Notes: generated from the sequence alone by a model not told the origin. A DNA stretch of 56,945 nt from Nitrososphaeria archaeon (GCA_029776125.1 JARVJS010000014.1:1-56945); one strand, 5' to 3'. Numbered from the stretch's first letter, positions 16,401 to 39,481 are shown. Numbers and translations are program-made.

Positions 16401-16499
16401 GCCGGGGTGCCTGAGCGGTCAAAAGGGCCGGCCTCGAGATCTTTCAAGAAAGCCGGTAACGGCCTGTCCGTTGCAAGGGTTCAAATCCCTTCCCCGGCG
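16401..16499 (+). tRNA. tRNA-Ser (anticodon CGA) with a ~12-nt intron at the canonical 37/38 position; integration target of the adjacent element
   Basis: Hand fold. Acceptor GCCGGGG/CCCCGGC, D arm CCT-GAGCGGTCAAA-AGG, anticodon stem CCGGC/GCCGG with loop CTCGAG[ATCTTTCAAGAA]A. An 18-nt variable arm has an AACGG/CCGTT stem. T arm AAGGG-TTCAAAT-CCCTT, discriminator G. Total 99 nt, about 87 nt once spliced. Confidence 0.85.
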
Positions 16500-16500
16500 T
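16485..16500 (+). repeat. attL core (ATCCCTTCCCCGGCGT), part of the tRNA-Ser T arm and acceptor
   Basis: Identical 16-mer at 39466-39481. Confidence 0.7.
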
Positions 16501-16554
16501 AATCGAGATCATGCAGCGCCCCATTCTCTTTAAATATTTGCTGGAGGGGTTAAG

Positions 16555-17730
16555 GTGATGGCTGACATACACTCTTACGCTAGAAGGGTTGCTGCAGTCG
16601 AAGGCCGGCTTCTTGGATCAAACGGGGAGACTGCAGGATCTTTTCTGAAACACCTTCGCGCGAGAGGCTTAACTGACGCCAGACTACACTTTTACGCTAC
16701 AAGACTGTCCAAGATCCTCTGCTTCCTTGACCGCAAAAATCTTAGGCTCCAGGACATTGGAAGAAAGGATGCTGAAGAGTTTCTGGCATGGGTTCTTTCT
16801 CAGCCGTTTAAGGCGTGGACGAAGCACGCTTACGTTCTAGCGTTCAAGAAGCTTGTCTCGTACGCTAAAACAGGCGATTCTGACAACGCTCCCCCTGAAG
16901 TTGCATGGATCAGGCCTCATGCATATTCTAGGGAGGCTGACAAGGAGTCCCGTGCAAGGCCTGAAGCGTTGCTTACAGAAGAGGAGATATTGAAGATCAT
17001 TTCATGCGCTAGGAACTTGAGGGACAGGGCCATGCTCTGGGTTCACTTTGAAGGCGCGCTTAGGCCTGGAGAGCTTCTCACGATGAAGGTTTCGAGTGTA
17101 GAGTTCAGGGACCAATATTGTCTCGTAAGCGTCCACGGCAAAACTGGCTTAAAGCGTCTCCCGCTGGTCATAAGCTTCAGGCCGCTCCTCGACTGGCTCA
17201 ACGTTCACCCGCTAAAAGACGATCCAAGCGCACCACTTTGGGCCAGCCTCTCCCGCTCACGCCATGGAGCCGGCGTCGGATACCAGTATTTCAGGAACAC
17301 GGTTAAAAGGTGCGCTGAAGAAGCCGGCCTAAAGAAGACTGTTTGGCCTTACCTGTTCAGGCACACGCAGCTCACGAGGCTCGCGAAAAAGCTTACCGAA
17401 GCCAAGCTTGCACTGTATGCTGGATGGGTTCAGGGATCCAACATGGCTAAAAAGTATGTTCACTTCAGCGCCAGAGACCTCGAGGAAACGGTTCTAGAAA
17501 TTAATGGGCTCAAGAAGCCTGAAGAAGAGCATTTGAAGCTCCAGCCTAGAATGTGCCCAAGATGCGGCGTCCAAAACAGTCCAGACACTGTAAGATGCTC
17601 ACGATGCGGCCTAGTCCTCGACCACCCGCAGGCAGTCGAAGAGGCTGCAAGAGAGCAGGAGGAGATCGAGTCAATAAAAAGGGAGCTGGAGGAGGTCAAG
17701 GACACCCTCAAACGCATCCTCCAACCCTAA
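16555..17730 (+). CDS. int: Tyrosine recombinase/integrase (XerC/D-like) with C-terminal zinc-ribbon extension
   Basis: 391 aa. N-terminal SAM-like core-binding region, then catalytic-domain blocks GALRPGELLTMK (Arg), LFRHTQLTRL (His-x-x-Arg) and KKYVHFS (Tyr). The tail carries MCPRCGVQNSPDTVRCSRCG. The gene is adjacent to the tRNA att site. Confidence 0.85.
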   Translation: MMADIHSYARRVAAVEGRLLGSNGETAGSFLKHLRARGLTDARLHFYATRLSKILCFLDRKNLRLQDIGRKDAEEFLAWVLSQPFKAWTKHAYVLAFKKLVSYAKTGDSDNAPPEVAWIRPHAYSREADKESRARPEALLTEEEILKIISCARNLRDRAMLWVHFEGALRPGELLTMKVSSVEFRDQYCLVSVHGKTGLKRLPLVISFRPLLDWLNVHPLKDDPSAPLWASLSRSRHGAGVGYQYFRNTVKRCAEEAGLKKTVWPYLFRHTQLTRLAKKLTEAKLALYAGWVQGSNMAKKYVHFSARDLEETVLEINGLKKPEEEHLKLQPRMCPRCGVQNSPDTVRCSRCGLVLDHPQAVEEAAREQEEIESIKRELEEVKDTLKRILQP

Positions 17731-17939
17731 ACCCTCTTTTCAAGCCTCGAAAGACGCTCCTCAATCAACTCGATCCTCCGAACAAGGCTCTCGAGAACAC
17801 TTTTCCGCACAAGAACATGCTCTCCATCCATCAACCAAACCAAAAAGAAAAGCTTAAAAAGAAAAAAGGGGAAACAGCATCCAAAAAACTTAAGCACCTG
17901 CTTAACTTGACAAAAGCATGAAGTGACATTTTGTTGCAA
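17727..17939 (-). CDS. Small hypothetical protein; only the C-terminal ~35 aa coiled-coil part looks credible (ATG at 17831)
   Basis: The sequence from the internal ATG, MDGEHVLVRKSVLESLVRRIELIEERLSRLEKRV, looks helical. The upstream part overlaps repeat DNA. Support is weak. Confidence 0.2.
   Translation of the reverse strand: MQQNVTSCFCQVKQVLKFFGCCFPFFLFKLFFLVWLMDGEHVLVRKSVLESLVRRIELIEERLSRLEKRV
17888..17908 (+). repeat. 21-bp direct repeat copy 1 (ACTTAAGCACCTGCTTAACTT), containing palindrome TTAAGCA-CC-TGCTTAA
   Basis: Exact second copy at 18016-18036. Confidence 0.85.
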
Positions 17940-17982
17940 ACACGACGACTCCAGAATCGACGTAAATGCAACAAAATGTCAC
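17923..17982. repeat. 60-bp hairpin-forming palindrome, copy 1
   Basis: The outer arms are 16-bp perfect complements: GTGACATTTTGTTGCA ... TGCAACAAAATGTCAC. The inner arms are imperfect and carry ACGACGA/TCGACGT. Confidence 0.85.
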
Positions 17983-18015
17983 CTCATGTTATCCTGTACG
18001 CTGGACTGTCAGCAG

Positions 18016-18036
18016 ACTTAAGCACCTGCTTAACTT
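18016..18036 (+). repeat. 21-bp direct repeat copy 2 (ACTTAAGCACCTGCTTAACTT)
   Basis: Exact copy of 17888-17908. Confidence 0.85.
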
Positions 18037-18060
18037 AACCAAAAAAACATTTAACATGAG

Positions 18061-18120
18061 GTAACATTTTGTTGCAAATGCGACGATTCTAGAGTCGTCG
18101 TAAATGCAACAAAATGTTAC
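18061..18120. repeat. 60-bp hairpin-forming palindrome, copy 2
   Basis: GTAACATTTTGTTGCA ... TGCAACAAAATGTTAC. Relative to copy 1, G to A in the left arm is matched by C to T in the right arm, so the symmetry is preserved. Confidence 0.85.
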
Positions 18121-18176
18121 TTCATGGCATGCTTACATTTTTCCTGCTGGGGATAATGTATTCTGTTAAGTTTGCG

Positions 18177-19928
18177 TCAACCTCTTCTGCAGCGTCCCAG
18201 AAACTGTTCCGTGTCCAAGAAGGCTACATTTTCGTCGACTTCTATAATATCGTGGCCTTTGCATAGAAGCCGATGCTCTTTAGCCGCCTTCGGATCCCTC
18301 CATGGGCCGGCTCCGCATGTTATACACCGGAGGAGCCTGGACTCTTCTACAGAATTCTTCTCCCGCTGCTCCCCCGCCTCTGTAACGCTTGTAACATTTG
18401 TAACACTTTTTCCACTCTGTACGCATCCTGCAACAAGATCTGCTGCACCAACATTGTCTGTAACACTTGTAACGCTTGTAACACTTGATTCCTCTGTAGG
18501 CTCATAGTCTGGAACAAACTCCATGAACCTTGTCCTAAGCCTGCCCTCGTCAAACCATATTGGCCTATAAACGCGGTCGATTCTAACAAGCTTAGGAAGC
18601 TGCTCCTGCCTCGGGTGAAACTGCAGAGAATTTATCACGTTCCTAACCTCTCTCGTGGACCATCTTATCTGCTCAGCCAAGTCTGAAGTCTGTAAGGGAA
18701 CAAAAAGATCTTCATTAGTTTTAGGATGCTTTATTTTGTTTTTTGCAAAATATTTTATTCCATTATGTTCTCCCATCAAGTTTTCACGCCAAAATTCATA
18801 GAGTGTGTTGATTATGATGCCGTCTTTTGACATGGCCTTAACTTCTCTCCTCCTCTTCTCCAGAACCTTCAGGATGTCCACAATGTTTGACGCAAAAGAT
18901 GGCTCAATTTTGCCTATCGCCAGCAGAGGCAAGACTGCAGCCGTAAGCCTGTGGTCCCTTATCCCCGGCACCCTTGCACCCTTGTCTATTACAACCTGAT
19001 CCCAGTACCTTAGCCTCAGGTAAAGAAGTTTAGCCTGAAGGTCAAGGCCCTTCTTGATCCAGTCGTCCAGCTCCTCGGTTGGAATCGCCTTCTGGCTTTT
19101 TTCGCAGTAGAAGGGTATCGTGCGATCTTCCAGCGCATTATCCTCCCAAACCCTCCTCTGCGTTATGATTGTGAGGCCAAAATTGTGGAAAACCTCATTA
19201 TATTTTGGGCTGTCAGGATTCTGCCTCGAGATTGGGACACCATAGCATCTGCAGTTCAGGTAATGGGTCAGCTCCGAAGTTTCACCCGTGTTAACGAAGT
19301 CCATTTCGCTCAAGCATAGTGTTCCACGCCACTGGTCAAGAGGCCGATAAAGTGAAGGAACCCTTCTCGTGCTCACGTCATAGAATGGCCTGTAACAGTT
19401 TAGTCTCAGGGCGTTGAGAAGCCTGTCTTTGCCGGAGCCCGAGGGCCCTCTCAAGGCTATTATTGGAGCGAAGGCACCCATTCCCGGAACAATCACGTTA
19501 AATTTGTCCAGGAACCAGCTGCTCTGGGCTACAGCCACCAGAAACTTTACCTCGTCAACCCTGTCAGCTTCACAGTCGTACATGCTGAGAGCCAGCTCGC
19601 ATCCTTCTTGAAAGACTTCACTGAAAGAGGATTCCTTTACCTCTTCAGGCAATAGGACCAGGCCCTTCTTAAGCGAAGGATTGTTTAGAGGCCGGTAAAC
19701 CACACGCTTTAAATCGTCTTTCAGCTCACTTTGAAGTTGGATCAGGATGCTTTTGGCCTGAAGATATCTGACCTCATAAAATGATGTCTCCTCTCTCCGC
19801 CTGTAAACCTGTTCCGCGACAGCGTAGCCTTCTATAACAGGGCTGGGAGAATATATGATGCTCGTGTCTGGAGTGTCGTCCTCGTCCTCCACGCTTTTGC
19901 CGGAAAAAGAGGATGTGGAGCTGCTCAT
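18177..19928 (-). CDS. P-loop NTPase, candidate SF3-like replicative helicase of the element
   Basis: 583 aa. Walker A RGPSGSGKD, Walker B-like TLCLSEMDF, then LTIITQRR (a possible motif C). The C-terminal Cys/His cluster is CITCG...CKGH. This is the last and largest gene of a tightly overlapping five-gene minus-strand operon. The function is inferred. Confidence 0.5.
   Translation of the reverse strand: MSSSTSSFSGKSVEDEDDTPDTSIIYSPSPVIEGYAVAEQVYRRREETSFYEVRYLQAKSILIQLQSELKDDLKRVVYRPLNNPSLKKGLVLLPEEVKESSFSEVFQEGCELALSMYDCEADRVDEVKFLVAVAQSSWFLDKFNVIVPGMGAFAPIIALRGPSGSGKDRLLNALRLNCYRPFYDVSTRRVPSLYRPLDQWRGTLCLSEMDFVNTGETSELTHYLNCRCYGVPISRQNPDSPKYNEVFHNFGLTIITQRRVWEDNALEDRTIPFYCEKSQKAIPTEELDDWIKKGLDLQAKLLYLRLRYWDQVVIDKGARVPGIRDHRLTAAVLPLLAIGKIEPSFASNIVDILKVLEKRRREVKAMSKDGIIINTLYEFWRENLMGEHNGIKYFAKNKIKHPKTNEDLFVPLQTSDLAEQIRWSTREVRNVINSLQFHPRQEQLPKLVRIDRVYRPIWFDEGRLRTRFMEFVPDYEPTEESSVTSVTSVTDNVGAADLVAGCVQSGKSVTNVTSVTEAGEQREKNSVEESRLLRCITCGAGPWRDPKAAKEHRLLCKGHDIIEVDENVAFLDTEQFLGRCRRG
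18381..18407 (+). repeat. Iteron triplet A (3 x 9 bp TGTAACRYT) inside the 3-prime part of the NTPase gene
   Basis: Sequence TGTAACGCTTGTAACATTTGTAACACT, read directly. Confidence 0.8.
18459..18485 (+). repeat. Iteron triplet B (3 x 9 bp TGTAACRYT) inside the 3-prime part of the NTPase gene
   Basis: Sequence TGTAACACTTGTAACGCTTGTAACACT. It encodes the SVTSVTSVT peptide on the minus strand. Confidence 0.8.
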
Positions 19929-19932: not shown

Positions 19933-20166
19933 TCACCTCCCTTTCAGCCGATACAAGATGATGAGGAAGACTGTTGCAGCATTTCTCCCGCAGAGGTCAC
20001 ATTCTCCCGGCCCCCATGCTGCGAGAGCATCGTATCCGAGAACCTTTTCCCTCAAGCATCTTCTGCAGACTGCTAAAGAGGTTTTGTCCAAAAAATGGGT
20101 TGGGGGGACAGTCATTGAACCACCTCCATCTTCTCGCAGACTTTCCTGTGAGCCCAGAGCGCGCAC
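19933..20166 (-). CDS. Small zinc-ribbon protein (hypothetical)
   Basis: Contains CRRC...CDLCG. A likely internal ATG gives MTVPPTHF (60 aa). The stop lies 4 nt before the NTPase start. Confidence 0.4.
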   Translation of the reverse strand: MRALGSQESLREDGGGSMTVPPTHFLDKTSLAVCRRCLREKVLGYDALAAWGPGECDLCGRNAATVFLIILYRLKGR

Positions 20167-20435
20167 CCGTAAACCTGCTTGAACCTGTCCCCTCGGACTA
20201 CCGTGAAAGAGTATTCGACGCCGTCGTCAACCACCTCCGTCCTGAAGTCGCCGATGTAGTTCATCATCCAGTACACCTTCAGCCTCTCGTGAAGCCAATA
20301 GTATATTCTGTAGGTTTCCGGAGAAGGCGGCGGAAGCTTGAACACGATCCTATCCCCGCGCCTGAACATGAAGCCTTCACTTTCCACCATTCTCCTCCGC
20401 CTCCAGACAGAGTTTCTCGCGCCTGAACAGTTCAA
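20112..20435 (-). CDS. Hypothetical protein (operon member)
   Basis: 107-aa frame overlapping its neighbours in an operon-like chain. A likely start is at MVESEGFMF. No motif recognised. Confidence 0.35.
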   Translation of the reverse strand: MNCSGARNSVWRRRRMVESEGFMFRRGDRIVFKLPPPSPETYRIYYWLHERLKVYWMMNYIGDFRTEVVDDGVEYSFTVVRGDRFKQVYGCALWAHRKVCEKMEVVQ

Positions 20436-20664
20436 ACAGGGCCTTCAGCATCCCGTTGGACAACTGAACCTGGTTCTCCAGCATGGAGGTCGAAGAAATC
20501 TTCAGAGAGTGAACTAGGCCGCGCTCATCCTGTTCCACGTCAACGTGGTAGTAAATGATGCCGTCGCCGAACTCGCATGGGATTTCAACAGCATAGGAGA
20601 CTGTTACAGTCCCAGTTTTCCGCACAATCGCCTGCCTCCCCCTACACTCCATCCTCCACTTCAC
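20377..20664 (-). CDS. Hypothetical protein (operon member)
   Basis: 95-aa frame. An internal ATG (MECRGRQ) overlaps the stop of the upstream gene in a coupled arrangement. No motif recognised. Confidence 0.35.
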   Translation of the reverse strand: MKWRMECRGRQAIVRKTGTVTVSYAVEIPCEFGDGIIYYHVDVEQDERGLVHSLKISSTSMLENQVQLSNGMLKALFELFRREKLCLEAEENGGK

Positions 20665-20833
20665 CTCTCACGGGAACAATGAGGATGCTGCCGTCATCGT
20701 AGAAAACGTATTCGACCAAGCGCCCATGTCCCAGCTTCTGCCACCTGACCCAGTCGCTTGGAGCAGCCATCACGTATTCCACGTCCCCCTTCCTTCGAAT
20801 CCTATACACTTTTCTCCTGATGACCTGAGCCAC
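20642..20833 (-). CDS. AbrB/SpoVT (MazE-like) swapped-hairpin DNA-binding protein, first gene of the replication operon
   Basis: RKVYRIRRKGDVEYVMAAPSDWVRWQKLGHGRLVEYVFYDDGSILIVP resembles the AbrB-type looped-hinge pattern. The ORF-track frame extends to 20962, but that N-terminal part is hydrophobic and low-complexity. I therefore prefer the GTG at 20833. Confidence 0.4.
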   Translation of the reverse strand: MAQVIRRKVYRIRRKGDVEYVMAAPSDWVRWQKLGHGRLVEYVFYDDGSILIVPVRGEVEDGV

Positions 20834-20998
20834 GCAGATCACCTGACAAAAGAAGAATACAGCCTTAAAAAGGAATGGAAGAATTCTACCGAAAACATTA
20901 TCCCGGCCGGAAAATGTAAGCCACCCTCTCTCGGGAAAAGCCTGCCCCCACAAGCATGCCACAAGCCCAACCCTTCTCCTTCTCCTTCCCTTCTCCCC

Positions 20999-21191
20999 TA
21001 AACGGGCGTCGCCTAAACGGGCTTCGCCCGTTTAATCATGCAAGAATGCGAAGCATTGTTGCAGCATACAGAGTGGAAAAAGTGTTACAAGCGTTACAAG
21101 CGTTACAGCCTAAACAGGCGAAGCCTGTTTAATCTAAACAGACTTCGTCCGTTTAATCTTATATCATGCAAGAATACGGAGTATTGTTGCA
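20999..21191. other. Highly structured intergenic region, candidate replication origin or master operator of the element
   Basis: Three 21-bp palindromes TAAACNGNC-nnn-GNCNGTTTA lie at 21014-21034, 21111-21131 and 21135-21155, with a half-site at 20999-21013. Two 25-nt hairpins TGCAAGAAT..ATTGTTGCA lie at 21039-21063 and 21167-21191 and show a compensatory base-pair change. An inverted iteron triplet lies at 21081-21107. Confidence 0.6.
21081..21107 (-). repeat. Iteron triplet C (reverse complement of 3 x TGTAACRCT)
   Basis: AGTGTTACAAGCGTTACAAGCGTTACA is the inverted counterpart of the triplets at 18381 and 18459. Confidence 0.8.
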
Positions 21192-21693: not shown

Positions 21694-22242
21694 TTGGCCG
21701 CTAAAATTCCAAGCGGTTTCACCCTAGTCGAGGGGGAGCGTCCATACTATTATGCAAGACTAAGCTGGAAAGCGAACTGGCTTCTCATACTCTTGGGGAT
21801 TCTGACGATCTGGGTCTTCGGCTTCGGCCTAATCTTCTTCATCATAGCCTTCCTGAGGGTTAAGGCTACAGAATATTTTATAACAAGCCACAGAATGTAC
21901 ACAAAATACGGTCTAATAGGAAGAAGGGTTTTCGAGATAAAAAACGAGTGGATCACGGGCGTGATGGTTAGACAGGGGTTCATCAGCAGAATACTCAACT
22001 ACGGCGACATCGTCTACAGCACGCCCGGCCAATACGCTGGCTCCGTCGCAATGATAGGCGTATCGGACCCAATGCACGTTAGAACAATAGTCGAAGACAT
22101 CCTGAACAAGTTCAAAGAAAGGCAGAAGCTGCAGGAAGAGCTGAAGGCTGTCGAAAGAGAATACGAGTTCGGAAGAATATCGAAGGAAAAGTATGAGGAG
22201 CTGAAGAAAAAGTACGAGGAAAAGATTAGGATCCTAGGCTAA
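21694..22242 (+). CDS. Membrane protein with bacterial PH (bPH_2/YdbT-like) domain and C-terminal SHOCT domain
   Basis: 182 aa. Two TM helices (NWLLILLGILTIWVFGFGLIFFIIAFL) are followed by YFITSHRMYTKYGLIGRRVFEIKNEWITGVMVRQGFISRILNYGDI (bPH_2 pattern). The tail EREYEFGRISKEKYEELKKKYEEKI is SHOCT-like. Confidence 0.6.
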   Translation: MAAKIPSGFTLVEGERPYYYARLSWKANWLLILLGILTIWVFGFGLIFFIIAFLRVKATEYFITSHRMYTKYGLIGRRVFEIKNEWITGVMVRQGFISRILNYGDIVYSTPGQYAGSVAMIGVSDPMHVRTIVEDILNKFKERQKLQEELKAVEREYEFGRISKEKYEELKKKYEEKIRILG

Positions 22243-22633: not shown

Positions 22634-23344
22634 TTAGAACAACTTAACACTAAAATCATCGCTTGACGTGTGGGTAACCGCACCTGGGGCTGTCCAAATA
22701 CTATTACCTATGTTACTTGACTGTCTAGGCTTATTTGCGTTTTCTAAAAATTCTTCTGCACGTTTCATATAGCAGCTGTCAGTAAATAGTCTTTTGAGCA
22801 TTTTATATGTTCCCCTATAAAACCTTATCAAATTGATACAATTTTCCTTCGGATCAAATGTTCTTAAATTGTCATATTTGTTAAACCTGCTTATATCTTC
22901 TAACTCCCTAATGTCATTATCTGACAGCCTACATTTTCTTATCTTTACTTGCTTTTCTCCTGGAAAGACTAACCCTATTCGGTGGGTAAGAGAGTTTCTT
23001 GTATCCCAAATAATATCAATGATCCCTTTTGGGTCTTGGACGCCTTCTTCACGCCATGGATAAAAGTCATTTAATAAGTCTTTGAAGTGGTCAAAATCCT
23101 TGTTTCCTTTACCCTGCAAGTAAGCCTCCAACTCTTTTGGATCATAAAGGGTGATCGAAATTCCACTGACAACGTCGACCATAAAATTGAAGAGTGCAAA
23201 GTTGCAGCCGCCTTTACAATTATTTTCAGGAAGAGGGTGTTTAAGCATTGCTCTCATGTCATCAAAAAGCATGTCTACACGCTCTCCTAGAAACTTATGA
23301 ACTTGAGGATATTTTCCCTTATCTATTAAATCTGACGGATTCAT
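22634..23344 (-). CDS. Hypothetical protein with a candidate HEPN-type Rx4H motif
   Basis: 236 aa. IWDTRNSLTHRIG contains R-N-x3-H, as in HEPN RNase active sites. The gene lies in a lower-GC islet within the element. No other motif recognised. Confidence 0.35.
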   Translation of the reverse strand: MNPSDLIDKGKYPQVHKFLGERVDMLFDDMRAMLKHPLPENNCKGGCNFALFNFMVDVVSGISITLYDPKELEAYLQGKGNKDFDHFKDLLNDFYPWREEGVQDPKGIIDIIWDTRNSLTHRIGLVFPGEKQVKIRKCRLSDNDIRELEDISRFNKYDNLRTFDPKENCINLIRFYRGTYKMLKRLFTDSCYMKRAEEFLENANKPRQSSNIGNSIWTAPGAVTHTSSDDFSVKLF

Positions 23345-28187: not shown

Positions 28188-28428
28188 TACACTGTTCCAG
28201 CGGAGGGGAAAATGTATCGGGGGCGAAAAAAGAGAGTAGACTAGGCTGAAGAAGCTTGCGTGATGTTCACCCGACCACCCTTCCCCTGGCCTGCGGAAGA
28301 AGACGGGGAAGCCGGACTCTCCCACCACCTTCTTTCACACGCTGGAAAAAGGTGGAGAAAAAGGAGTGTGGAAGGAGAAGGGGAAAACAGTTAAATGGGG
28401 GCGGAAAAACATTCTGCCACAGAAGAAA

Positions 28429-30783: not shown

Positions 30784-31423
30784 TCCATCTCCTTACACCA
30801 TCGTATGCCCTGGAAACGGTTTCAAGAAACTCTGCCAGCACATCGGCTGCAGAGGATACAACATTAAACAGTCGACTAAGGTCAACCGCGCTGGAGACAA
30901 CAAGAGAATAGAGAGTTCCATCGGATACAAGATGCAGCAGCCTAACATTATCTGACGAGAAAACAATCTCCGAAACCCGAACACGCTCGAGCACGCCAAA
31001 AGACTGTGAAACAAGAAACTTGGCCCTAGAACATTTAATGCTAGAACAGTCTCCAGAAAACCTCCTGCGCAAGACAACAGGCTTATAGAGTCTAACACGC
31101 CTGCTGAGGCGACAGAGTACAACGAAAGCGTCCCTAACCTGGCTCCTAACACATTCAGCCAAAACCTCACCCTTTCCCCTGACAAGGTTCAGGAAACCGA
31201 ACAGGTCAACCTTGCCGTCGACAGTACTAAAATCCTTTTCAACAAAAACAATCTTCAGCCCACCATCTTCCTCGAACATGACAGCCCGTCTAGAGAGAGA
31301 AAAAGGCTTAAGGTACGAGAAACATTCTACAACCTTCGCTGCCACATTCCTGTTCAAAGCATGCACGTCACACGACTGGAGCATGCCAAAAAGTCTCCTA
31401 GCATCAGAGTCCATCAGGAGCAC
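30713..31423 (-). CDS. Hypothetical protein, paralogue A of 31675..32397
   Basis: 236 aa. Shares VECFSYLKPF / VECFSHLKPF and GEVLAECVRSQVRDAFVVLCRLSRRVRL / GAVLSRYVRPLVRRAFYDLCMLAGRIRL with the 240-aa protein. Conservation between the two copies supports that it is coding. Confidence 0.45.
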   Translation of the reverse strand: MLLMDSDARRLFGMLQSCDVHALNRNVAAKVVECFSYLKPFSLSRRAVMFEEDGGLKIVFVEKDFSTVDGKVDLFGFLNLVRGKGEVLAECVRSQVRDAFVVLCRLSRRVRLYKPVVLRRRFSGDCSSIKCSRAKFLVSQSFGVLERVRVSEIVFSSDNVRLLHLVSDGTLYSLVVSSAVDLSRLFNVVSSAADVLAEFLETVSRAYDGVRRWNDGVFERMLDTVRPHVLAADLGR

Positions 31424-31638
31424 CCTTCCAAGAGAACCTTCCTCGCATCACTTTCACATCGTGCCACAATGCTGCCGCAGACCGGACAACGGTACTCTTG
31501 GTCGTCGACGTCAACAGACTCAATACCATAGTATTCGCCCACACCATCTCTTACAGTGAAGCCGCCGCGCACAAACTCTGTCGCAGAATACTCGAGCTCC
31601 ACAATAAGGCTGCCGCAGAAAGGACACTTTCCCACCAC
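31414..31638 (-). CDS. Small zinc-ribbon protein
   Basis: 74 aa with CPFCGS ... CPVCGS. The gene sits between the two paralogues and overlaps the downstream start by 10 nt. Confidence 0.5.
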   Translation of the reverse strand: MVGKCPFCGSLIVELEYSATEFVRGGFTVRDGVGEYYGIESVDVDDQEYRCPVCGSIVARCESDARKVLLEGCS

Positions 31639-31674
31639 CTAACACCCCCAAAAAAGGGAAACAGGGGAAACATT

Positions 31675-32397
31675 CTAAAAGAGTTCCCTGGAAACACGGT
31701 ACGGTTCAACAGTCAACTCCATCTGCTCCAGAACCCGACCATTCTCCTCAAACACTGGAGAAAGCTGCCTCCTCAGCTGCTCAGCAAGTTCAGCGATGAC
31801 GTCAAACAAAAGAGGAAACCGTGCCACCACATCACGCAAATCATAGCATAATCCAATATTGAAAACGTACACCACATCATTCGACAGCACGTAAAAGGTT
31901 CCAGGATCAGACGCATTCAACATGACAGAGTCAACGGAATCCAACCTTATCACAGGAAGCTGCTTACTTGACACAGAAACATACTTGAGCCCACGGTCAG
32001 GAAAGCCCCTGGACAAAACCTTTTCAGCAGAAGCCTCCTCAACAAGCCTTATCCTCCCAGCAAGCATGCAAAGATCATAGAACGCTCTCCTAACAAGCGG
32101 CCTAACGTACCTGGAGAGGACAGCACCATGTTTCCTGACAACGTCAAAAAACTCTTTCCCCAAAACCTCTCCCACAATAAACCTTGTACCATAAACATAG
32201 ATCCTCCGGTCAACCCATGTTCTAACAAAATAGTGTAGGACAACACCATCTTCTTTGACTGGAACAATGAACGGCTTAAGATGCGAGAAACATTCCACAA
32301 TCTTGTCCAAAACCTTCTTCCTGTAAACGCTCAAGTCAACTTCCAAGAGCATACGTTTCACGCGTCTAACATCGTCTTCCAACATAATTTCCCCCAA
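31675..32397 (-). CDS. Hypothetical protein, paralogue B of 30713..31423
   Basis: 240 aa. See the shared blocks listed for paralogue A. Confidence 0.45.
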   Translation of the reverse strand: MGEIMLEDDVRRVKRMLLEVDLSVYRKKVLDKIVECFSHLKPFIVPVKEDGVVLHYFVRTWVDRRIYVYGTRFIVGEVLGKEFFDVVRKHGAVLSRYVRPLVRRAFYDLCMLAGRIRLVEEASAEKVLSRGFPDRGLKYVSVSSKQLPVIRLDSVDSVMLNASDPGTFYVLSNDVVYVFNIGLCYDLRDVVARFPLLFDVIAELAEQLRRQLSPVFEENGRVLEQMELTVEPYRVSRELF

Positions 32398-32408
32398 AAA
32401 AGGGTGGT

Positions 32409-32678
32409 CTAGTCGAAGTTGAACAGCAGAAAGTATGCTGGAGCAACAACAAGCAGCCCTATCGCACCAAACACTGCAGCATAAACTTTGACGGGATCAA
32501 ACACTGGAGGCATAAAGCATCCAAGCAGTCCGTCGACAACAAACCATCTTGGAAAATACTTGTCTGGAGCAAGGAAAACATCGAATGAAAAGAGTATACT
32601 GTAGGCGGACAAGACGGCGATGGCAGCGGTTACAAGGAGAACGTTAGCCTTAACCTTCAATGCAACCATCCCCTCCAA
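32409..32678 (-). CDS. Small membrane protein (2-3 TM helices)
   Basis: 89 aa, strongly hydrophobic (LLVTAAIAVLSAYSILFSF, AAVFGAIGLLVVAPAYFLLF). Lies directly downstream of the ParB-like gene. Confidence 0.4.
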   Translation of the reverse strand: MEGMVALKVKANVLLVTAAIAVLSAYSILFSFDVFLAPDKYFPRWFVVDGLLGCFMPPVFDPVKVYAAVFGAIGLLVVAPAYFLLFNFD

Positions 32679-32717
32679 AAAACGGTAAGCCGGTGGAAAG
32701 AAAAGGAAATCCAGGGT

Positions 32718-34199
32718 TCAGACAACATTGTCCTTGACTAGAAAAGTTTTCCCGCAGAAGGGGCATCTTACAACAAGATCCTCCTTAAACTTAAGCAGCC
32801 TCTCGAGCTCCGCAACCCTTGCCCTTAGAACATCAATTTCTTTTCTAGCGTAAGCCAAGTCCGTTTCCACGGAAACAGTGTCACGTGCAGCCTCCCTAGC
32901 CTTCCTTATCTCCCACAGCGCATCATCCAAGCTCATGACGTTAACAAGCTCAACAATCCTACGCTTCTCCTCCTCACTAAAGTCTCCCTTAACAAATTCT
33001 TCGGCGAGACGGAACGCTATACCTCTTCTGGAGGGAATGAGGCCGTTGAAGATGAAACCGTGTTTGGCGTTAAGTTCATCAAACTTCCTGCTCATGAACT
33101 CTTCTGCAGCCTTAAGCGCCTGCTTCGGATCAATGCCGCGGTACACTTGATCAACAACCATCTTGGTCTCGCTGCTGGTAAGCCCCTTTTCCCTGACAGC
33201 GTATGCGATCTCCTTAACAGCATCAGGCTTATCCTTTATCTTAAGAAGCTCCTCCGCATGCGATGGGGTGAGGAAGCCCCTGGGCTTGGAGACAGAAGCC
33301 CCCTTATCCAGCCCACCTTCTCTGACACCGTCTACGGCAACAAAATTGTGCCCTGGGGCACAATTTCCCGCTCCAGTCTCCTGCAACGGTACAGAATTTA
33401 GGTTAACCAAATTGTGCGGTAACGCACAATTTTCCGCCCTAGTCTGTCCAAAGTAGTCTCCAACAGAATTTTGCGCTGGCGCAAAATTTCCTGCTCCAGC
33501 ATCATGCGATGGCACAGGATTTAGGTTAACCAAATTTTGCCGTACGGCAAAATTTTCTGCCCTAACCTGCTCCAAACCATCTCCGTCAGCCTTCCTCCTG
33601 TCAATCTCCCTCTGAAGCCTCCTCTCGAAGTCTTCTTCAAGCATTTTCTGCACCTCCTCCGGAAGGTCAAGAAACTGTATCCTGCGGACAACGTAGCTGC
33701 AGTCTTTCCCAATCTTGTTGGCGAGGTCGGTGACCGAACCCCAGCCGAACTCTTCAACATACCTTTTGAAGGCTCTAGCCTCTTCCATTGGACTAAGCTG
33801 CTTACGCTGAACATTTTCAACCAACGCTATCTCGAAAGCGTCCCTGTCATCCAGTCCATCGTGTACAATACACAGCGCCTCTTCCACGCCAAGCGTCTTC
33901 AACGCATTATATCTTCTCCATCCGCAGACAAGCTCGTACCCGCTTCCAGCCTTCCTGACAGTAAGCGGGTTAAGAAGCCCCTTCCTTCGAATACTTTCAG
34001 CAAGCTCGTCTATCCTGCCAAGAGATGACCTCAAAAGAAACCTTGGAGCACTGATTTCCGAAAGCCTAAGATATCTGATCTGAGATGAAACAGCCTTCTG
34101 CATACAGCATCCTCCAAAAAAGGTGGAAAAGACTCCGTCACCATTCCCGCATACTGTTGGGAAAGTAGAAGGCGACAGCCAGAACAAGGCATACTCCAA
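32718..34199 (-). CDS. ParB/Srx-domain protein with HTH, an internal 41-aa tandem repeat, coiled coil and C-terminal zinc-ribbon-like end
   Basis: ParB N-terminal blocks are LRLSEISAPRF, GLLNPLTVRKAGSGYELVCGWRRYNALKTLG and ALVENVQRKQLSPMEEA. HTH: LANKIGKDCSYVVRRIQFLDLPEEVQ. The C-terminal end has RCPFCGKTF. The likely start is the ATG at 34103 (MQKAVSS). Confidence 0.7.
   Translation of the reverse strand: MEYALFWLSPSTFPTVCGNGDGVFSTFFGGCCMQKAVSSQIRYLRLSEISAPRFLLRSSLGRIDELAESIRRKGLLNPLTVRKAGSGYELVCGWRRYNALKTLGVEEALCIVHDGLDDRDAFEIALVENVQRKQLSPMEEARAFKRYVEEFGWGSVTDLANKIGKDCSYVVRRIQFLDLPEEVQKMLEEDFERRLQREIDRRKADGDGLEQVRAENFAVRQNLVNLNPVPSHDAGAGNFAPAQNSVGDYFGQTRAENCALPHNLVNLNSVPLQETGAGNCAPGHNFVAVDGVREGGLDKGASVSKPRGFLTPSHAEELLKIKDKPDAVKEIAYAVREKGLTSSETKMVVDQVYRGIDPKQALKAAEEFMSRKFDELNAKHGFIFNGLIPSRRGIAFRLAEEFVKGDFSEEEKRRIVELVNVMSLDDALWEIRKAREAARDTVSVETDLAYARKEIDVLRARVAELERLLKFKEDLVVRCPFCGKTFLVKDNVV
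33343..33555. repeat. Four 22-24-bp palindromes in a ~123-bp tandem duplication inside the ParB-like ORF (candidate parS-like centromere)
   Basis: P1 33343-33366 AAATTGTGCCC-TG-GGGCACAATTT. P2 33409-33432 AAATTGTGCG-GTAA-CGCACAATTT. P3 33467-33488 AATTTTGCGC-TG-GCGCAAAATT. P4 33532-33555 AAATTTTGCCGTACGGCAAAATTT. A TTAGGTTAACCAAAT spacer precedes P2 and P4. Confidence 0.9.
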
Positions 34200-34465
34200 A
34201 AATCATTCCTAAAACAAACAAGTCCATCCGCTTGTCCCCCAAAAAACTTGTCCAAAAAAAGTTTCAAGCAAAAAAAGTGTGGAGAAAAATGGACAGGATC
34301 TAGATTTCGACAACCTCTCCATTTAACTTTGGCTTAGGGTTGACCTTCCCGCGATTCTCTCTATTGCAGCATCCTTTCTAATATCATTCTTTCACACTAG
34401 GGAGGAGAAGATAGCGCATTCTAGAAAATAAAATTTATATAATTGGAAATCCAGAAAATGTCTTG

Positions 34466-34593: not shown

Positions 34594-37080
34594 ATGAGTC
34601 CAACACCATCAAAAAAGTTGAATAAGGTCGTTGGAACGCTAGAAGTGTTTATACTTCTTCTGCCAATTTTTGCTGGAGCATCTTCTCTTACACCAGTAGG
34701 CTATGCGAAGGCCATGTCTTACGTTAACCAGGACATTTTAGTGGACACTGTGTGGGACAAAAGTGGAAGCCCATATATTATACAGAAGAGTATCATGGTA
34801 GCAGAAGGTGCCACGTTGAAGATTGAGCCGGGCGTGGAAGTCGATGTCATCGAAAAGTCTACGATAACAGTGTACGGTAAAATTGTTGCAGGATCTGTTG
34901 GAGGAGAAGCTGTTAACGTTAAAGGCTGGGGTAAGCCTGGAACATTCTCTGTCCAAGTCAAAGGCGGAAATCTTCACATAGAAAATGCTGTGATAGAAAA
35001 TGTTCTTATGACGTTAGAGGATGCTGACGTGAAACTTTCTAGGCTGAAGACAGGGTCTTTTACGATAGACGTGTTCAACAGGTCCATGTTGGCAGCCGCG
35101 GGACTTGAAGCCGAAAGCCTGAAAGTCGGTGGAGGAAAATGTGGTATAGCATACTCTATCCTGTCCATAGAAAATTCGGAGGTCAAGTCAATCGAGGTTT
35201 CAGGATACGCTGGAGTTTACTGTTCGACTGTTAGACTGTCGGATGTCCAGAGCCAGACGATGAAAGTGGCTGGAAAGCCGCCATACTGGGTAGGCGGTGT
35301 GATGGGAGTCGACGTCTACAATTCCACAGTGTACTTTAACATGGTTTATGCTGGCAAAGTCGACATGAGCGGATATGGCGGCTTCAGGCACTCTTTCATA
35401 AAATTCGATGGCGGTAGGGTGGGAGACATTATCATGCCGCTTGACGTCTACAATTCTACTGTAGAAGTCTATTCTGTGGAAGCGGATACAGTAAACTTCT
35501 GTCCCGGTACGATGGTGCGTTCGAAAACCTTTTTCGAGAACGTTGTCGCGAACAAGATAATGTTCAACGGAAGCAAGTACTGGGGTGAAATCGCTTCCAA
35601 TTCGAACATTACATTCAACCGCATCGTGTGCAGGACATTGGCTGTTTCAGGCATGTCGGGAGACAGTGGAATCGACGTGAGAAACAGTACTATAAAGATT
35701 GTTGGGTCCACAGTCGCATACGGTTCAGGAGTGTACGTCAGGTGCCTCACGAACTCGGTTCTGGAAATAAGTGGATCAAACGTTTACGGAAACAGTCCAT
35801 ACGGCCTCTATGTTGGATCATCGTCTGGCATGATTATAGGCAAAAATCCTGTCGTTAAAGTGGACGGAAACTGGTGGGGTGACGCTAGCGGACCAACCAA
35901 TCCAAAACTTAATCCGGGCGGAAAAGGCGACACCATCATAGTTCCAGACAATACTACAATATCCAAGTGGCTTACTTCTCCAGCGGGAGGAGCTGTGATG
36001 CCAAGGTCTAGGCTTGAGCCAGCGAATCCTGTTATAGCAAGAGGAAGTCCAGCATCTTTTATGGTAGCAGCTGAAGGAAGCAGGATAGCCGCATGCTTCA
36101 TGGACTTCGGAGACGGTTCTGTGTCAGGCTGGACACGTGACCTGCCAGTAGTCCACGTGTATAATGCGGTTGGAGAATATCTGGTTACAGCGTACACGGT
36201 GCACGAGAACATGCTTTTAACTAAAGCATCTGCTTTGGTCAGGGTGGCGTCACCTCCTTCCGTTAAAATAGTGTCTCCTGCAAACGGTACACTATTAAAA
36301 GATAACATGGTGAAAGTGGATGTTAACGTAGAGGATCCGGTTGGGATAATATTGTGCCAGATTAAAGTGGACGATTTTACTAGAACCGTGAAACCGAATA
36401 CTACAAGATACGCTGGAACAGTCTCTTTGGGTCCTATAGCGGACGGGTGGCATCTTGTCGAGGTCAATGCTACAAACGTGTTTGGGCTATCATCTTTGGA
36501 TAACGTTGTTGTCGGAACAGACACTATCACCCCATGTATAGAAATAGAAGCTCCTCCAGCAACAAGCGGAACCTTCACTTTGAAATGGAATATAACAGAC
36601 AATTTTAGCGGCGTGAACCCTGACAGCGTCAGAATATCGTGTGGAAGAATATATTTTCCACGTGCGGTCGTCGGAAGCATTAACCTCACAATTGATGCCA
36701 CAACAAACATTATAGTTTATGCTGCAGACTATGCTGGAAACACTATTGAAGCAAACTTTACGATAAAGTATGTTGGAAAAACTTCTACAGCTACTGCAAC
36801 AGCCTCTCAGACTGAAACTTCTTCTTCCACTGAACCGTGTTCCAGCGAATCTTCTACTATACCATCGTATCATGGGCAGGAAGGCGAATACGATTGGATA
36901 AACTATGTTGTACCCTTCGTTATCCTGGCAGCAGTTGTAGCTGCGGTCGCGTTAGCTGTCGTCTATAGGTTCAGGAGAAAGAGGGAGGTTGCCGAAATTA
37001 AGGCGATTGAAGGTGAAACCGTGGAAGGCGGGCAGGCTGGAGCAGGCGGGGCAGGGGGCGGAGGAAATGAAGCTGTTTGA
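34594..37080 (+). CDS. Secreted, membrane-anchored surface protein with beta-helix repeats, PKD domain and Ig-like domains
   Basis: 828 aa. Signal-like N-terminus (VFILLLPIFAGASS), a long repetitive beta-helix-like region, and the PKD signature FMDFGDGSVSGW...VHVYNAVGEYLVTAYTV. Also a DNFSGV Ig-like module, a Ser/Thr-rich stalk, a C-terminal TM helix (VVPFVILAAVVAAVALAVVY) and a basic/Gly-rich tail. Confidence 0.7.
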   Translation: MSPTPSKKLNKVVGTLEVFILLLPIFAGASSLTPVGYAKAMSYVNQDILVDTVWDKSGSPYIIQKSIMVAEGATLKIEPGVEVDVIEKSTITVYGKIVAGSVGGEAVNVKGWGKPGTFSVQVKGGNLHIENAVIENVLMTLEDADVKLSRLKTGSFTIDVFNRSMLAAAGLEAESLKVGGGKCGIAYSILSIENSEVKSIEVSGYAGVYCSTVRLSDVQSQTMKVAGKPPYWVGGVMGVDVYNSTVYFNMVYAGKVDMSGYGGFRHSFIKFDGGRVGDIIMPLDVYNSTVEVYSVEADTVNFCPGTMVRSKTFFENVVANKIMFNGSKYWGEIASNSNITFNRIVCRTLAVSGMSGDSGIDVRNSTIKIVGSTVAYGSGVYVRCLTNSVLEISGSNVYGNSPYGLYVGSSSGMIIGKNPVVKVDGNWWGDASGPTNPKLNPGGKGDTIIVPDNTTISKWLTSPAGGAVMPRSRLEPANPVIARGSPASFMVAAEGSRIAACFMDFGDGSVSGWTRDLPVVHVYNAVGEYLVTAYTVHENMLLTKASALVRVASPPSVKIVSPANGTLLKDNMVKVDVNVEDPVGIILCQIKVDDFTRTVKPNTTRYAGTVSLGPIADGWHLVEVNATNVFGLSSLDNVVVGTDTITPCIEIEAPPATSGTFTLKWNITDNFSGVNPDSVRISCGRIYFPRAVVGSINLTIDATTNIIVYAADYAGNTIEANFTIKYVGKTSTATATASQTETSSSTEPCSSESSTIPSYHGQEGEYDWINYVVPFVILAAVVAAVALAVVYRFRRKREVAEIKAIEGETVEGGQAGAGGAGGGGNEAV

Positions 37081-38935
37081 GCATACAATGGTCAATATCT
37101 TCCTGTTTGTGGCAATAGTGTCAGTTGTCACATACTATCCTTTGCCGATTCCACACTTTTCTAACTTCATGTCATATACGGAGTTCACTGGAATGCCTAG
37201 CACGAGTCTTCCACCAGATTTCGGTGAGAAACTGACAGAGTTCATTGACATGTGTGTATGGTGGCCTACAATTTTTGTGAAAATGTTGACCGGGGCAGCA
37301 AGTTGGCCGTATTCTGCAACGATGCAACTTGGTGTAGTCTATCTTAGTTGGATAATTTTTATTGCTGCAAGCGGTGTACCAGACCTAGATTCTGAAGGCG
37401 GCAACATACTAAGCGTTGTATTGTATCTTCCTCTAACATTCCTCCTATGGGCTCTGAAGAAGATTGCGCCTGAACCATTCAGGCACAGGGGTGCCGCGCA
37501 CAGCATATTTTATGCACTACTCGCGTCAGCAGTAAACTTTCTTCTGATGTACTTACTCTATGTTTTTGTCGTGCGAGCGATTGGCGTAAACACATTCATT
37601 GGAGGGTTGCTGGAAACCATGGCTATTTTTTCGGCTTCACTTTTGCCACTATGCTATCTAGGGCACATTCTGTTTGACACTTCAACCGAGTCCGGGGTCA
37701 GACTATTCTATCCTCTTTCGAACAAAGTCTTCTATGGAAAATTTTGGCCAGTGTTCGCTTCCCCGCTTCTACCATTCGCATACTTTATTATTGTACCATT
37801 CATTCCCAGGCAGGAGACTGCAGTCTACTGGACACAATTTTACAGCCTGTTTCCGCCAGCGTTCGCTCTATCGCTTGCACTTATACCGACGTCGATAGCT
37901 GTTAGTACATTGACTAGGAAGCCGGGAAAGTCTAAGGTAGGCAGTCTTCCTAGGACAGTGGACACAATTTTACAAGCCGATTACCCGCATGGTTCAGAGG
38001 ACACGGTGTCAGAAAGTTTGCAGGACAAAATGTTGGAAGAACGTAGGAGGAGTCTGGAGAAAGCGGAGGCTGAAAGGAGACAGGGGACTGCAATGAAGAT
38101 TATAATGGAGAAGGTTTTGGAGACTGCGAAGGACAGTGGGAAAGGCGAAGAATCTTTGCTGGAGAAAAGGAAAGCTGGAGGCCGGAAAAATAATGTTGCA
38201 CTAGAGTCCATTTGGTTCCAGGAAAAGGATTTGGAGAAAGTGTGGGCGTTCTATCTCCAGAAGAACGGTGGATCCGTTAACAGAGCGTTAGAAGAGTTTA
38301 AGCTGAAGGCTGAAGCGTTCAAGAAAACGAGTGAGGGGAAAGGGTTAGCTGAGCAAATTGACACTGTTGTAAAAGAGATCGTCGACGAAATAGCAAAAAA
38401 GAAAGTATTTGAAGAGGAAATTTATAGGAAAGCTAAAGAGGAATTGTCTAAAATGGAAAGTCAGCCTATAAAACAGGAGTATGCGACACCGAAACCTGTT
38501 GAACAGATACAAAACCTGTTGAACAGAAAACCAAAACCTGTTGAACAGATAAAGGATTCAAAAAATCTGCCGGCAATTAGGTCACCAGATTTGAAAAGGA
38601 TCCAAAAGGTTTGGAAAGTTGACGTTAAAGACATGCGACCAGAAAGACCTAAAGAATTGGTAGAAGGTGGATTTTATGAGGACGCGTATGTGTCAGCGTT
38701 CTCATTACTTGAATATGTGTTAAAGAAGAATATGAAAATGATTTATGGCGACTTCCGTGCCGTACTTGACAAAATGGTGGAAGAAGAAAAAATTTCTTCT
38801 ACACTAAAAGAAAGAATCAGCCAATATTATGATATAAGAAACGGTGTGGTACACTCTGGCAGGAAAGTTTCTTTTAAAGAAGTTCGCGAATTCGTTAACT
38901 TCGTGTACGATGTGTTAGAGGGTCAAGTACACTAG
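37067..38935 (+). CDS. Fusion protein with N-terminal YdjM/DUF457-type membrane domain, charged coiled-coil linker and C-terminal HEPN domain
   Basis: I prefer the ATG at 37067, which follows GGAGGAA; the ORF track starts at 36989 inside the upstream gene. The polytopic N-terminus has VPDLDSEGG and FRHRGAAHSIFYAL, which are DUF457 hallmarks. About 230 aa of Lys/Glu-rich linker follow. The C-terminal FYEDAYVSAFSLLEYVLKK...YYDIRNGVVHSG carries the Rx4H HEPN motif. Confidence 0.6.
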   Translation: MKLFEHTMVNIFLFVAIVSVVTYYPLPIPHFSNFMSYTEFTGMPSTSLPPDFGEKLTEFIDMCVWWPTIFVKMLTGAASWPYSATMQLGVVYLSWIIFIAASGVPDLDSEGGNILSVVLYLPLTFLLWALKKIAPEPFRHRGAAHSIFYALLASAVNFLLMYLLYVFVVRAIGVNTFIGGLLETMAIFSASLLPLCYLGHILFDTSTESGVRLFYPLSNKVFYGKFWPVFASPLLPFAYFIIVPFIPRQETAVYWTQFYSLFPPAFALSLALIPTSIAVSTLTRKPGKSKVGSLPRTVDTILQADYPHGSEDTVSESLQDKMLEERRRSLEKAEAERRQGTAMKIIMEKVLETAKDSGKGEESLLEKRKAGGRKNNVALESIWFQEKDLEKVWAFYLQKNGGSVNRALEEFKLKAEAFKKTSEGKGLAEQIDTVVKEIVDEIAKKKVFEEEIYRKAKEELSKMESQPIKQEYATPKPVEQIQNLLNRKPKPVEQIKDSKNLPAIRSPDLKRIQKVWKVDVKDMRPERPKELVEGGFYEDAYVSAFSLLEYVLKKNMKMIYGDFRAVLDKMVEEEKISSTLKERISQYYDIRNGVVHSGRKVSFKEVREFVNFVYDVLEGQVH

Positions 38936-39465
38936 AAACTGATTCTTAATCATAACAAATATACGATGAACTAACATTTTTCAAATGAATTTTAGTATCA
39001 CTCTTTGAGTTGATGAACATTTTAAAGGAAAAATGTCTGCCACATTTGGCACGAATTCAAACACACTCTGTAGCCAAAAAAGACTAGAGTTATATAGAAA
39101 TTAGAACTAAATATTTTTTCTCAAGCTAGATACGAAACAAGTGAAGCATGATTTAAATGCTCGTGGCTTATAAAGCATGTAGACTTAGGCACACCAGAAA
39201 AATCGAAGACATCAAAAAGATATGATCCAAGATCAGAATAGCTCTCTCAAAATTCATATTCGCTCGCCTCTGTTGAGGTTCCTACCAGCCTAGATAATTG
39301 GGTAAAACTTAGGTAAAAGTAGATAAAAAAACTGGAAAAATAAAACATAAAGAAAATATCAAAATAAAATTTTCTTTGACAACGTTGGTTAAAGACCAGA
39401 TTTCTAAACGCCTAAATTTATAAAAAAGTTTGATCCGAAAGACGGGCGCCAAACAAAAAACTTTT

Positions 39466-39481
39466 ATCCCTTCCCCGGCGT
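39466..39481 (+). repeat. attR core (ATCCCTTCCCCGGCGT), displaced tRNA-Ser 3-prime fragment
   Basis: Identical 16-mer at 16485-16500. Host-like AT-rich core genes resume downstream. Confidence 0.7.

Follow-up and report, generated by a model that had tools for sequence, protein, structure and literature searches.

A mobile element, probably plasmid-like, inserted in a serine tRNA gene of a low-GC archaeon and encoding a predicted helicase of a previously undescribed family

The window analyzed here (a stretch of 56,945 nucleotides of a Nitrososphaeria archaeon, GCA_029776125.1 JARVJS010000014.1:1-56945) contains a mobile element at 16501-39481, inserted in a serine tRNA gene of a host with low G+C content (GC). 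The tRNA gene occupies 16401-16499 on the plus strand (Rfam RF00005, 47.6 bits), and the same tRNA is found in four other loci (L001, L002, L004, and L029). Its anticodon loop reads CU-CGA-GA and is followed, on reading the sequence, by an intron, which makes it an archaeal intron-containing tRNA-Ser(CGA); ARAGORN missed it and reported only a tRNA-Leu at 15431-15516. A 16-mer, ATCCCTTCCCCGGCGT, has exactly two exact copies in the window, both on the plus strand, where none is expected by chance: the attL core at 16485-16500 and the attR core at 39466-39481. This is the direct repeat described in an earlier reading of the DNA from its sequence alone (hereafter the sequence-only reading). The final 15 nt of the tRNA gene belong to the left copy (the attB/attL core), and the gene remains intact after the insertion. 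There is no third copy in the window at up to 2 mismatches, the closest other site having 4, so the frequent recurrence that the sequence-only reading had named as counting against it is absent from the window. The repeats are separated by 22,965 bp, and the block 16501-39481 measures 22,981 bp. A tandem or composite insertion was rejected, as there is no internal att-like site at up to 3 mismatches. The right end is an AT-rich noncoding arm (38936-39465, from the GC profile), the presumed attP arm.

An intact gene for a tyrosine integrase of 390 aa lies just inside attL (16558-17730, plus strand). The match to PF00589 (52 bits) spans positions 3-168 of the 172 of the profile, a SAM-like N-terminal domain matches too, the protein falls in phrog_1, and it ends in a zinc ribbon; a tyrosine recombinase catalytic domain thus stands at one end of the element. 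The gene starts 57 nt past attL, or 54 nt if the GTG at 16555 is taken, in line with the roughly 55 nt given previously. The GTG start was discarded, as an exact database look-up matched the integrase from the ATG.

The flanks of the element encode the large and small subunits of PolD, Orc1/Cdc6, Hef, PriL, PriS, GINS, and PCNA, and hence the host is an archaeon. The window is also contained in a 222-kb contig of a metagenome-assembled genome (JAVZPO010000001.1, GCA_038881555.1), the Rep of which bears the label "Thermoproteota archaeon"; contigs of related metagenome-assembled genomes bear the label Nitrososphaeria. About 195 bp past attR, host genes resume with UPF0147/PRK04330 (39677) and Hef (40037), and the sequence-only reading was right on this point as well as in placing the insertion about 5 kb from the replication origin. 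Upstream of orc1/cdc6, approximately 5 kb from attL, there are repeats of the origin recognition box (ORB) type at 11196-11519, which include GTCCAGTGGAAATAAAGGGGT twice and an inverted pair at 11320-11344 and 11495-11519, with PolD genes on both sides. By these sequence features, the region 11190-11545 is the predicted chromosomal replication origin.

The tRNA-Ser site can be empty. In two relatives of the host (L002 and L004, 78-80% nucleotide identity in the flanks), a homologous HD-domain gene and the tRNA-Ser are followed by some 190 bp and then directly by UPF0147 and Hef, which is the gene order found to the right of attR. An empty attB would be expected to read straight from the tRNA-Ser into CTGTTCTCTTAATTC. 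The sequence-only reading had proposed such a comparison, and the order of genes agrees with it, but these flanks are too diverged for the exact junction to be compared. In a further locus (L001, 10817-12594), a gene for a 342-aa radical-SAM protein stands between the tRNA-Ser and UPF0147, a position left empty in L002 and L004 and taken by the element in the window. The region downstream of the tRNA-Ser is therefore variable in this lineage. The 342-aa open reading frame (ORF) was also considered as an integrase remnant, and this was rejected given its radical-SAM assignment.

The same site is occupied in other genomes. A 5.7-kb contig of a separate assembly (L020, GCA_038880515.1) has an identical attL junction, with the element at the same tRNA. 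Its element part differs from the window at 2 of 5,477 bases (99.96% identity), against 23 of 193 host bases; the host flank, which is the closest to that of the window, is 91.8% identical when the tRNA is included. A near-identical element in diverged hosts implies recent horizontal transfer, and by this sequence comparison the element is evidently active and recently mobile between hosts. It is thus a natural case of almost identical DNA passing from one host to another, diverged one. A different member of the same family (L029) sits at the same tRNA-Ser beside a homologous host HD gene, its integrase being 61% identical to that of the window and its replication protein (Rep, see following) 64% identical. 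Together with the empty sites and the repeated attL junction, this re-use of the tRNA supports the site-specific integration in tRNA-Ser(CGA) that had been proposed.

The P-loop protein of the element, here called Rep, is a protein of 583 aa (18177-19928, minus strand). From the N- to the C-terminus it comprises a beta domain, an AAA+ core, a winged helix, a disordered linker of VTS repeats, and a Cys/His motif. Its AlphaFold (AF2) model has a mean predicted local distance difference test (pLDDT) of 82.3. When this model is searched with Foldseek, the matches are the helicase modules of NrS-1 (CTR), PriRep1, vaccinia D5 and monkeypox virus E5, African swine fever virus PrimPol, papillomavirus E1, adeno-associated virus Rep40, and MCM (E between 1e-6 and 1e-4), with TM-scores normalized by target length of up to 0.43 for PriRep1, NrS-1, and E5. 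A search of the Rep profile against the sequences of PDB gave nothing meaningful. The invariant residues of the family include G166 and K167 in Walker A (GSGK[D/N]R) and E208 in Walker B. A superfamily 3 (SF3)/AAA+ core that bears Walker A and B, with a winged helix after it, is thus recognizable at the level of the fold only, with an atypical Walker A. The Walker B of the window Rep reads LSEMD, compared with the family consensus LDExD. By predicted fold, the P-loop protein is a D5/SF3-like replicative helicase.

Homologs of Rep form at least 119 clusters, from contigs labeled Thermoproteota, Thermofilum, Thaumarchaeota/Nitrososphaerota, Nezhaarchaeales, Hadesarchaea, and Bathyarchaeota. About 15 of the 119, which are among the longer ones, have an N-terminal PF09250 (Prim-Pol) domain with or without PF08708 (PriCT_1). 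One of the homologs, P0010, is 61% identical to Rep over its residues 310-804, downstream of its Prim-Pol/PriCT_1 domains. By model and homology, Rep is the predicted helicase half of a primpol-helicase replication protein. A scan of metagenomes found at least 114 relatives of Rep, 80 of which were retrieved. Two of these loci, L030 (4.9 kb) and L073 (7.4 kb), are circular, as indicated by terminal overlaps of 124 and 127 bp. The complete circle L073 (Ga0209102_1002773) encodes Rep, a separate archaeo-eukaryotic primase (AEP), and a tyrosine integrase, and is an episomal form of an integrase-bearing member of the family. A tRNA adjoins a confirmed or putative integrase in L021, L022, L051, L055, and L029. 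In L021 (CALHLD010000024.1, about 2000-8700, on the contig shared with L001), from a sister genome, the element of this family has a putative integrase of 423 aa, with a weak match to PF00589, a Rep of 560 aa, and, as a neighbor, a type I restriction-modification HsdM gene, and it adjoins an intron-containing tRNA and a 5S rRNA gene. [quoted passage not shown] The sequence-only reading had seen no recognizable hallmark of a virus or plasmid family. This holds for viruses within the sensitivity of the searches, but for plasmids it is contradicted by the SF3/D5-like fold of Rep, its Prim-Pol-fused orthologs, and its small circular relatives. The Rep family is previously undescribed, and the number of its clusters and metagenome loci and its presence in several archaeal lineages make it an unannotated protein family of some breadth linked to plasmid-type replication.

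The circle L030 (Ga0209225_1012112), and also L031, encodes a 208-aa protein (3926-4552 in L030) with a marginal match to PF12193, which is the C-terminal domain from the coat protein of Sulfolobus rod-shaped virus (26.5 bits for a cut-off of 25.2). This could mean that a tiny virus or satellite uses the Rep family. The window has no homolog of this coat-like protein.

Several repeats accompany rep. Two arrays of three TGTAAC motifs with 9-bp spacing lie inside its 3′ end (18379-18495, at 18381-18404 and 18459-18482). Translated, they give SVTSVT, in a part of Rep that is predicted to be disordered (pLDDT below 50). A third array is found in inverted orientation upstream of the rep operon (21064-21108; 45 nt, 93% complementary to 18380-18424). 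There, the Val-Thr frame stays open for no more than 25 codons, which argues that this repeat is conserved as DNA. Triplet arrays are present in 47 of the 80 related loci and also in L021 and L022, usually as an inverted pair in the 3′ end of rep, and at least 8 loci have extra arrays outside rep, mostly with a Val-Thr frame open for less than 70 codons. The motif GTNAC encodes Val-Thr in both orientations. Among the Val codons in the motif, GTA and GTT make up 76%, against 53% elsewhere, so that the bias is partial. Overall, the GTNAC triplets at 9-bp spacing look like iterons.

Between int and rep, two tandem units identified by repeat search form a candidate origin or cis region (17888-18126). 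Each has a 28-nt repeat with AAGCACCTGCTT, followed by a near-perfect palindrome of about 72 nt (17917-17991 and 18055-18126) with a DNA folding energy of -73.5 kcal/mol (z = -17.9). A shorter palindrome, AAGCAYNTGCTT, has 7 sites (17892, 18020, 21627, 22283, 22569, 25813, and 36224) for 0.13 expected. All are within the element and 6 are at gene boundaries, a clustering that suggests operators of an element-encoded regulator. Three of them are included in a 26-nt repeat (22278, 22564, and 25808) flanking the block of the 236-aa and PKD genes (see following), and these could be operators or cassette boundaries. The iteron triplets, the 72-nt palindrome, and the operator-like palindrome are testable cis elements.

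A ParB operon occupies 30274-34103 on the minus strand. Its genes are, in the order of transcription, ParB, an 86-aa protein with two transmembrane (TM) segments, p236, a 73-aa zinc ribbon, p233, and a 149-aa protein. ParB (461 aa, 32718-34103) has ParB_N (PF02195) and HTH_ParB (PF17762) domains and scores 103.9 bits with TIGR00180 (cut-off 58.45). As in ParABS systems, an N-terminal ParB/Srx domain is associated with a helix-turn-helix (HTH). The gene includes a tandem duplication of 123 nt (33338-33583, 77-81% identity), so that an NFA..QN..VNLN segment is repeated in the protein, after the HTH and before the C-terminal part. The proteins p236 and p233 are paralogs (30% identity). They have one exact cluster of homologs by word search and 44 remote relatives by HMMER, and do not match Pfam. 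Their candidacy as capsid proteins was rejected, p236 having a confident helical AF2 model with no fold match in PDB or BFVD.

The block 30493-34348 is 99.87% identical to a locus of a third assembly (L108, GCA_038874495.1 JAVZCH010000087.1), which has different genes upstream, two further ParB_N proteins being encoded among them. In total, L108 encodes at 1-6528 three proteins with ParB_N, two with HTH_17, and one that is glutaredoxin-like. L108 shares with the window element only the ParB operon and the 72-nt palindrome, of which it has a 93% identical copy in a different context. This points to the exchange of modules between elements in one community. Hence, the element is a mosaic and gives an example of a ParB module moving between elements.

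NCBI gene calls place 24 genes in the element, and the remaining ones are mostly cargo. Upstream of rep and in the same operon, three small genes encode proteins of 92, 91, and 103 aa (20112-20953, minus strand; NCBI calls, L019) with no family matches. The 92-aa protein has a weak homolog in L029 and L027, and the 103-aa one has no detectable relation to the AbrB-like protein of L030, of which it was considered a possible relative. A membrane protein with a bacterial PH domain (bPH_2; 21694-22242, plus strand) matches PF03703 (52 bits) and phrog_3707 ("membrane-flanked domain"). A 205-aa winged-helix DNA-binding protein (26039-26656, minus strand) is a candidate regulator, given weak wHTH matches on a longer ORF and a 40%-identical segment in L029. 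The 336-aa protein at 27177-28187 (plus strand) has no family matches, and a D...EVEVK motif in its translation hints at a PD-(D/E)xK nuclease. In the 3′ part of this ORF (27924-28030), overlapping tandem repeats of 15 and 18 nt give an MFDxxMFD and Cys-Ser-Met-rich C-terminus, and the end of the gene is uncertain. It is followed by a membrane-anchored DUF4352 (Ig-like) protein (28366-29058, plus strand; PF11611, 64 bits; phrog_806) and by an FkbM-family S-adenosylmethionine methyltransferase (29071-29913, minus strand; PF05050, 75.6 bits; phrog_8156).

Two large surface proteins are encoded. The protein of 712 aa (23418-25556, minus strand; PKD_4 121 bits, PKD 90 bits) has a signal or TM segment, a beta-helix region, two PKD domains, a Thr-rich stalk, and a C-terminal TM anchor. 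The one of 828 aa (34594-37080, plus strand; PKD 33 bits, weak Big_7 and Beta_helix matches) has an N-terminal TM or signal segment, a beta-helix region, PKD and Ig domains, a Ser/Thr stalk, and also a C-terminal TM anchor. As they are shared with none of the 82 related Rep loci, these PKD proteins are cargo rather than core. Family matches thus substantiate the ParB, the methyltransferase, and the two PKD/beta-helix proteins of the sequence-only reading, which had also reported HEPN proteins. The Rx4H motifs of the latter are present, with Pfam matches that are only below threshold. One candidate is a 236-aa protein with RNSLTH (22634-23344, minus strand; HEPN_Apea 16 bits, E = 0.017). The other, of 622 aa (37067-38935, plus strand), combines a YdjM-type membrane hydrolase domain (PF04307, 47.6 bits), a coiled coil, and a C-terminal RNGVVH, with HEPN-type matches to DUF4145 (17.8 bits) and HEPN_RiboL-PSP (14.5 bits). 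Neither candidate has matches in the PADLOC or PDB searches, and PADLOC recognized no defense system in the element, with only weak methyltransferase and wHTH matches.

The element differs from its host in composition. GC is 46.7% in the element, 31.8% in the left host flank, and 30.5% in the right one, and GC at third codon positions is about 0.52 in element genes and 0.20 in host genes. The excess is thus of 15-16 points and not of about 20, as the sequence-only reading had estimated. The change is abrupt at attL, as it had described from the sequence, and gradual at attR, the last 1 kb or so of the element having 30-39% GC. Other integrated members of the Rep family have 42-50% GC within hosts of 31-36% GC. 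For example, L021 has 42-49% GC for 31-36% in its flanks, and the same pattern is found in L034 and L088. This recurrent excess in low-GC hosts is an unusual pattern and looks like a trait of the family, possibly tied to a broad host range or to movement among hosts of differing composition. The excess had been taken to indicate a recent arrival from a very different donor. Recent mobility is upheld by the near-identity of the element across hosts, but the argument for a distant donor has to be qualified, since the excess recurs in other members of the family and is no proof of a single recent arrival from afar.

We put at roughly three chances in four the interpretation of the block 16501-39481 as an integrated plasmid-like element with its own replication helicase, of the class of the cryptic integrated elements (CIEs) of Thaumarchaeota. 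The tyrosine integrase would have acted by recombination between the 16-bp core of attP and its identical counterpart at the 3′ end of tRNA-Ser(CGA), leaving the tRNA intact and duplicating the core. Once excised, the circle would replicate from an origin around the rep operon, where a hexameric D5/SF3-like Rep may use its winged-helix domain to bind the GTNAC iterons spaced at 9 bp. The host PriS/PriL would have to supply the primers, because Rep does not have the Prim-Pol domain that many orthologs carry. The ParB-family protein, its five small partners, and the AAGCAYNTGCTT palindromes probably serve in segregation and regulation. To these would be added a variable cargo of two anchored PKD/beta-helix proteins, three other membrane proteins, a methyltransferase, and possible nucleases.

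Some observations weigh against this interpretation. No excised or circular copy of the window element was seen among the sequences searched, where the additional contigs were all short. Rep falls in no curated family of Pfam, PHROG, or NCBIfam, finds no match among the plasmids of cultured organisms in PLSDB, and has a Walker A with GK[D/N] instead of the usual GK[S/T]. No primase is encoded, AEP/Prim-Pol domains being absent from Rep and from the other ORFs of the element by Pfam. ParB has no ParA partner and no parS was identified; Rep is the sole protein with a visible P-loop, and the operon partners of ParB have no family matches. The role of the iterons is not fully separable from selection on the VT-repeat peptide, given that GTNAC means Val-Thr both ways and that the codon bias is partial. 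Finally, no function could be assigned to around half of the 24 genes, among which a virion or transfer module of an unfamiliar type is possible.

This last point also speaks for a provirus of an unrecognized archaeal virus, for example a pleomorphic enveloped one, with PKD/beta-helix spikes, small membrane proteins making up the rest of the particle, and Rep replicating the viral genome. That 5 of 24 genes code for membrane or surface proteins would suit such a virus, as would recent movement between hosts without conjugation genes and the marginal rod-virus coat domain in the related circle L030. Many archaeal virus capsid proteins are missed by profile searches. We nevertheless regard a provirus as unlikely. 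No ORF has a structural, packaging, or portal match in PHROGs or Pfam. Searches of IMG/VR with the Rep profile, with ParB, and with the integrase gave no relatives, nor did a search of INPHARED with Rep. The p236 protein does not have a jelly-roll or HK97 fold, as its model is helical and has no solved or predicted viral match. The coat-like protein of L030 has no counterpart in the element, the PKD proteins are not found with other Reps of the family, and Rep is the sole detectable NTPase. In general, no match to capsid, portal, terminase, packaging ATPase, secretion ATPase, relaxase, or Prim-Pol was found in PHROGs, Pfam, NCBIfam, or PADLOC within the sensitivity of these searches. This agrees with the absence of capsid, portal, terminase, conjugation ATPase, and primase-polymerase in the sequence-only reading. 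A related and quite improbable idea is that the element, and with it perhaps all of the Rep family, represents the genome of a capsid-less or membrane-enveloped infectious agent (a pleomorphic virus or a "plasmid" transferred in vesicles) displaying the PKD/beta-helix proteins on its particles. If this were true, the agent would pass among archaeal lineages that differ widely in GC while keeping its own at about 45%, and its origin would be written into the frame of rep as GTNAC iterons translated as a disordered VTS linker.

Transfer by contact has also to be weighed. The block could be an integrative-conjugative element (ICE), or a mobilizable one, whose surface proteins mediate mating-pair contact. 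ParB is typical of thaumarchaeal ICEs (PMC6563490), and the two large surface proteins and the recent transfer between hosts would be explained. This is very unlikely, as VirB4, VirD4/TraG, an ATPase of HerA/FtsK type, VirB6, pilin, and prepilin peptidase were not detected in any ORF, and as 23 kb is small for an archaeal ICE. The least mobile readings are a genomic island that is immobile and decaying, or a chimeric assembly with its join at the tRNA. They draw on the fact that the window comes from a metagenome-assembled genome and that a single contig covers attR. They are hardly credible: neither int nor rep is disrupted, the two copies of the repeat match exactly, and the order of host genes picks up again after attR precisely as it runs at the empty sites. 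A second, independent assembly shows the attL junction again, next to another and diverged host flank, which makes a chimera very unlikely, and 99.96% identity of the element across hosts is incompatible with an old vertical inheritance.

The integrated plasmid-like element preferred here can be compared with several known systems. Replicons of the pRN1 and NrS-1/D5 types share with it the fold of Rep (NrS-1 CTR, PriRep1, D5/E5), the PF09250 domain with or without PF08708 in orthologs, and the existence of small circular relatives. In contrast with these systems, the window Rep has no AEP domain, no sequence-level match to D5/pRN1 helicases, and a GK[D/N] Walker A, and the element is found integrated and, with its 23 kb, exceeds its circular relatives of 5-7.5 kb severalfold. 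The primpol-helicase organization is well known in archaeal plasmids and CIEs, including split versions (PMC6563490, PMC5862659). As for integration, the element resembles the nonsuicidal pNOB8-type integrases (PMC8371274), in that the gene is intact after integration and att lies outside it at the 3′ end of the tRNA. It differs from the pNOB8-type elements of Sulfolobales in the att core, which is of 16 bp here and of 40-50 bp there (PMC8371274).

The element fits among CIEs, a class documented together with its sizes, its tRNA targets, its short att sites, and its primpol/S3H (superfamily 3 helicase) Reps, which are split or fused (PMC6563490, PMC8371274). CIEs are inserted by a tyrosine integrase, with tRNA genes, some of them containing introns, as frequent targets and with short att repeats; they range from 2.6 to 98 kb, with a median of 17 kb, and lack the hallmarks of viruses and of conjugation (Krupovic et al. 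2019, PMC6563490). Their replication proteins are of the type of mobile genetic elements, including primpol-S3H, fused or as separate genes, and their variable cargo includes restriction-modification components (PMC6563490). The window element has the integrase and att sites, with neither virus hallmarks (Pfam, PHROGs) nor VirB4, VirD4, VirB6, or pilins within the limits of search sensitivity, and also the intron-containing tRNA target, the short repeats, a replication protein, and variable cargo. Unlike CIEs, its Rep belongs to a family with no Pfam, NCBIfam, or PHROG model and has no primpol partner in the element, its host is from a lineage of 31% GC labeled Nitrososphaeria or Thermoproteota, and it carries a ParB, a protein highlighted for ICEs (PMC6563490). 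In conclusion, a well-delimited element is added to the sparse catalogue of mobile elements of noncultured Thermoproteota/Nitrososphaeria, and it fits as a further case of archaeal cryptic integrated elements or integrative plasmids, with an undescribed family of Rep.

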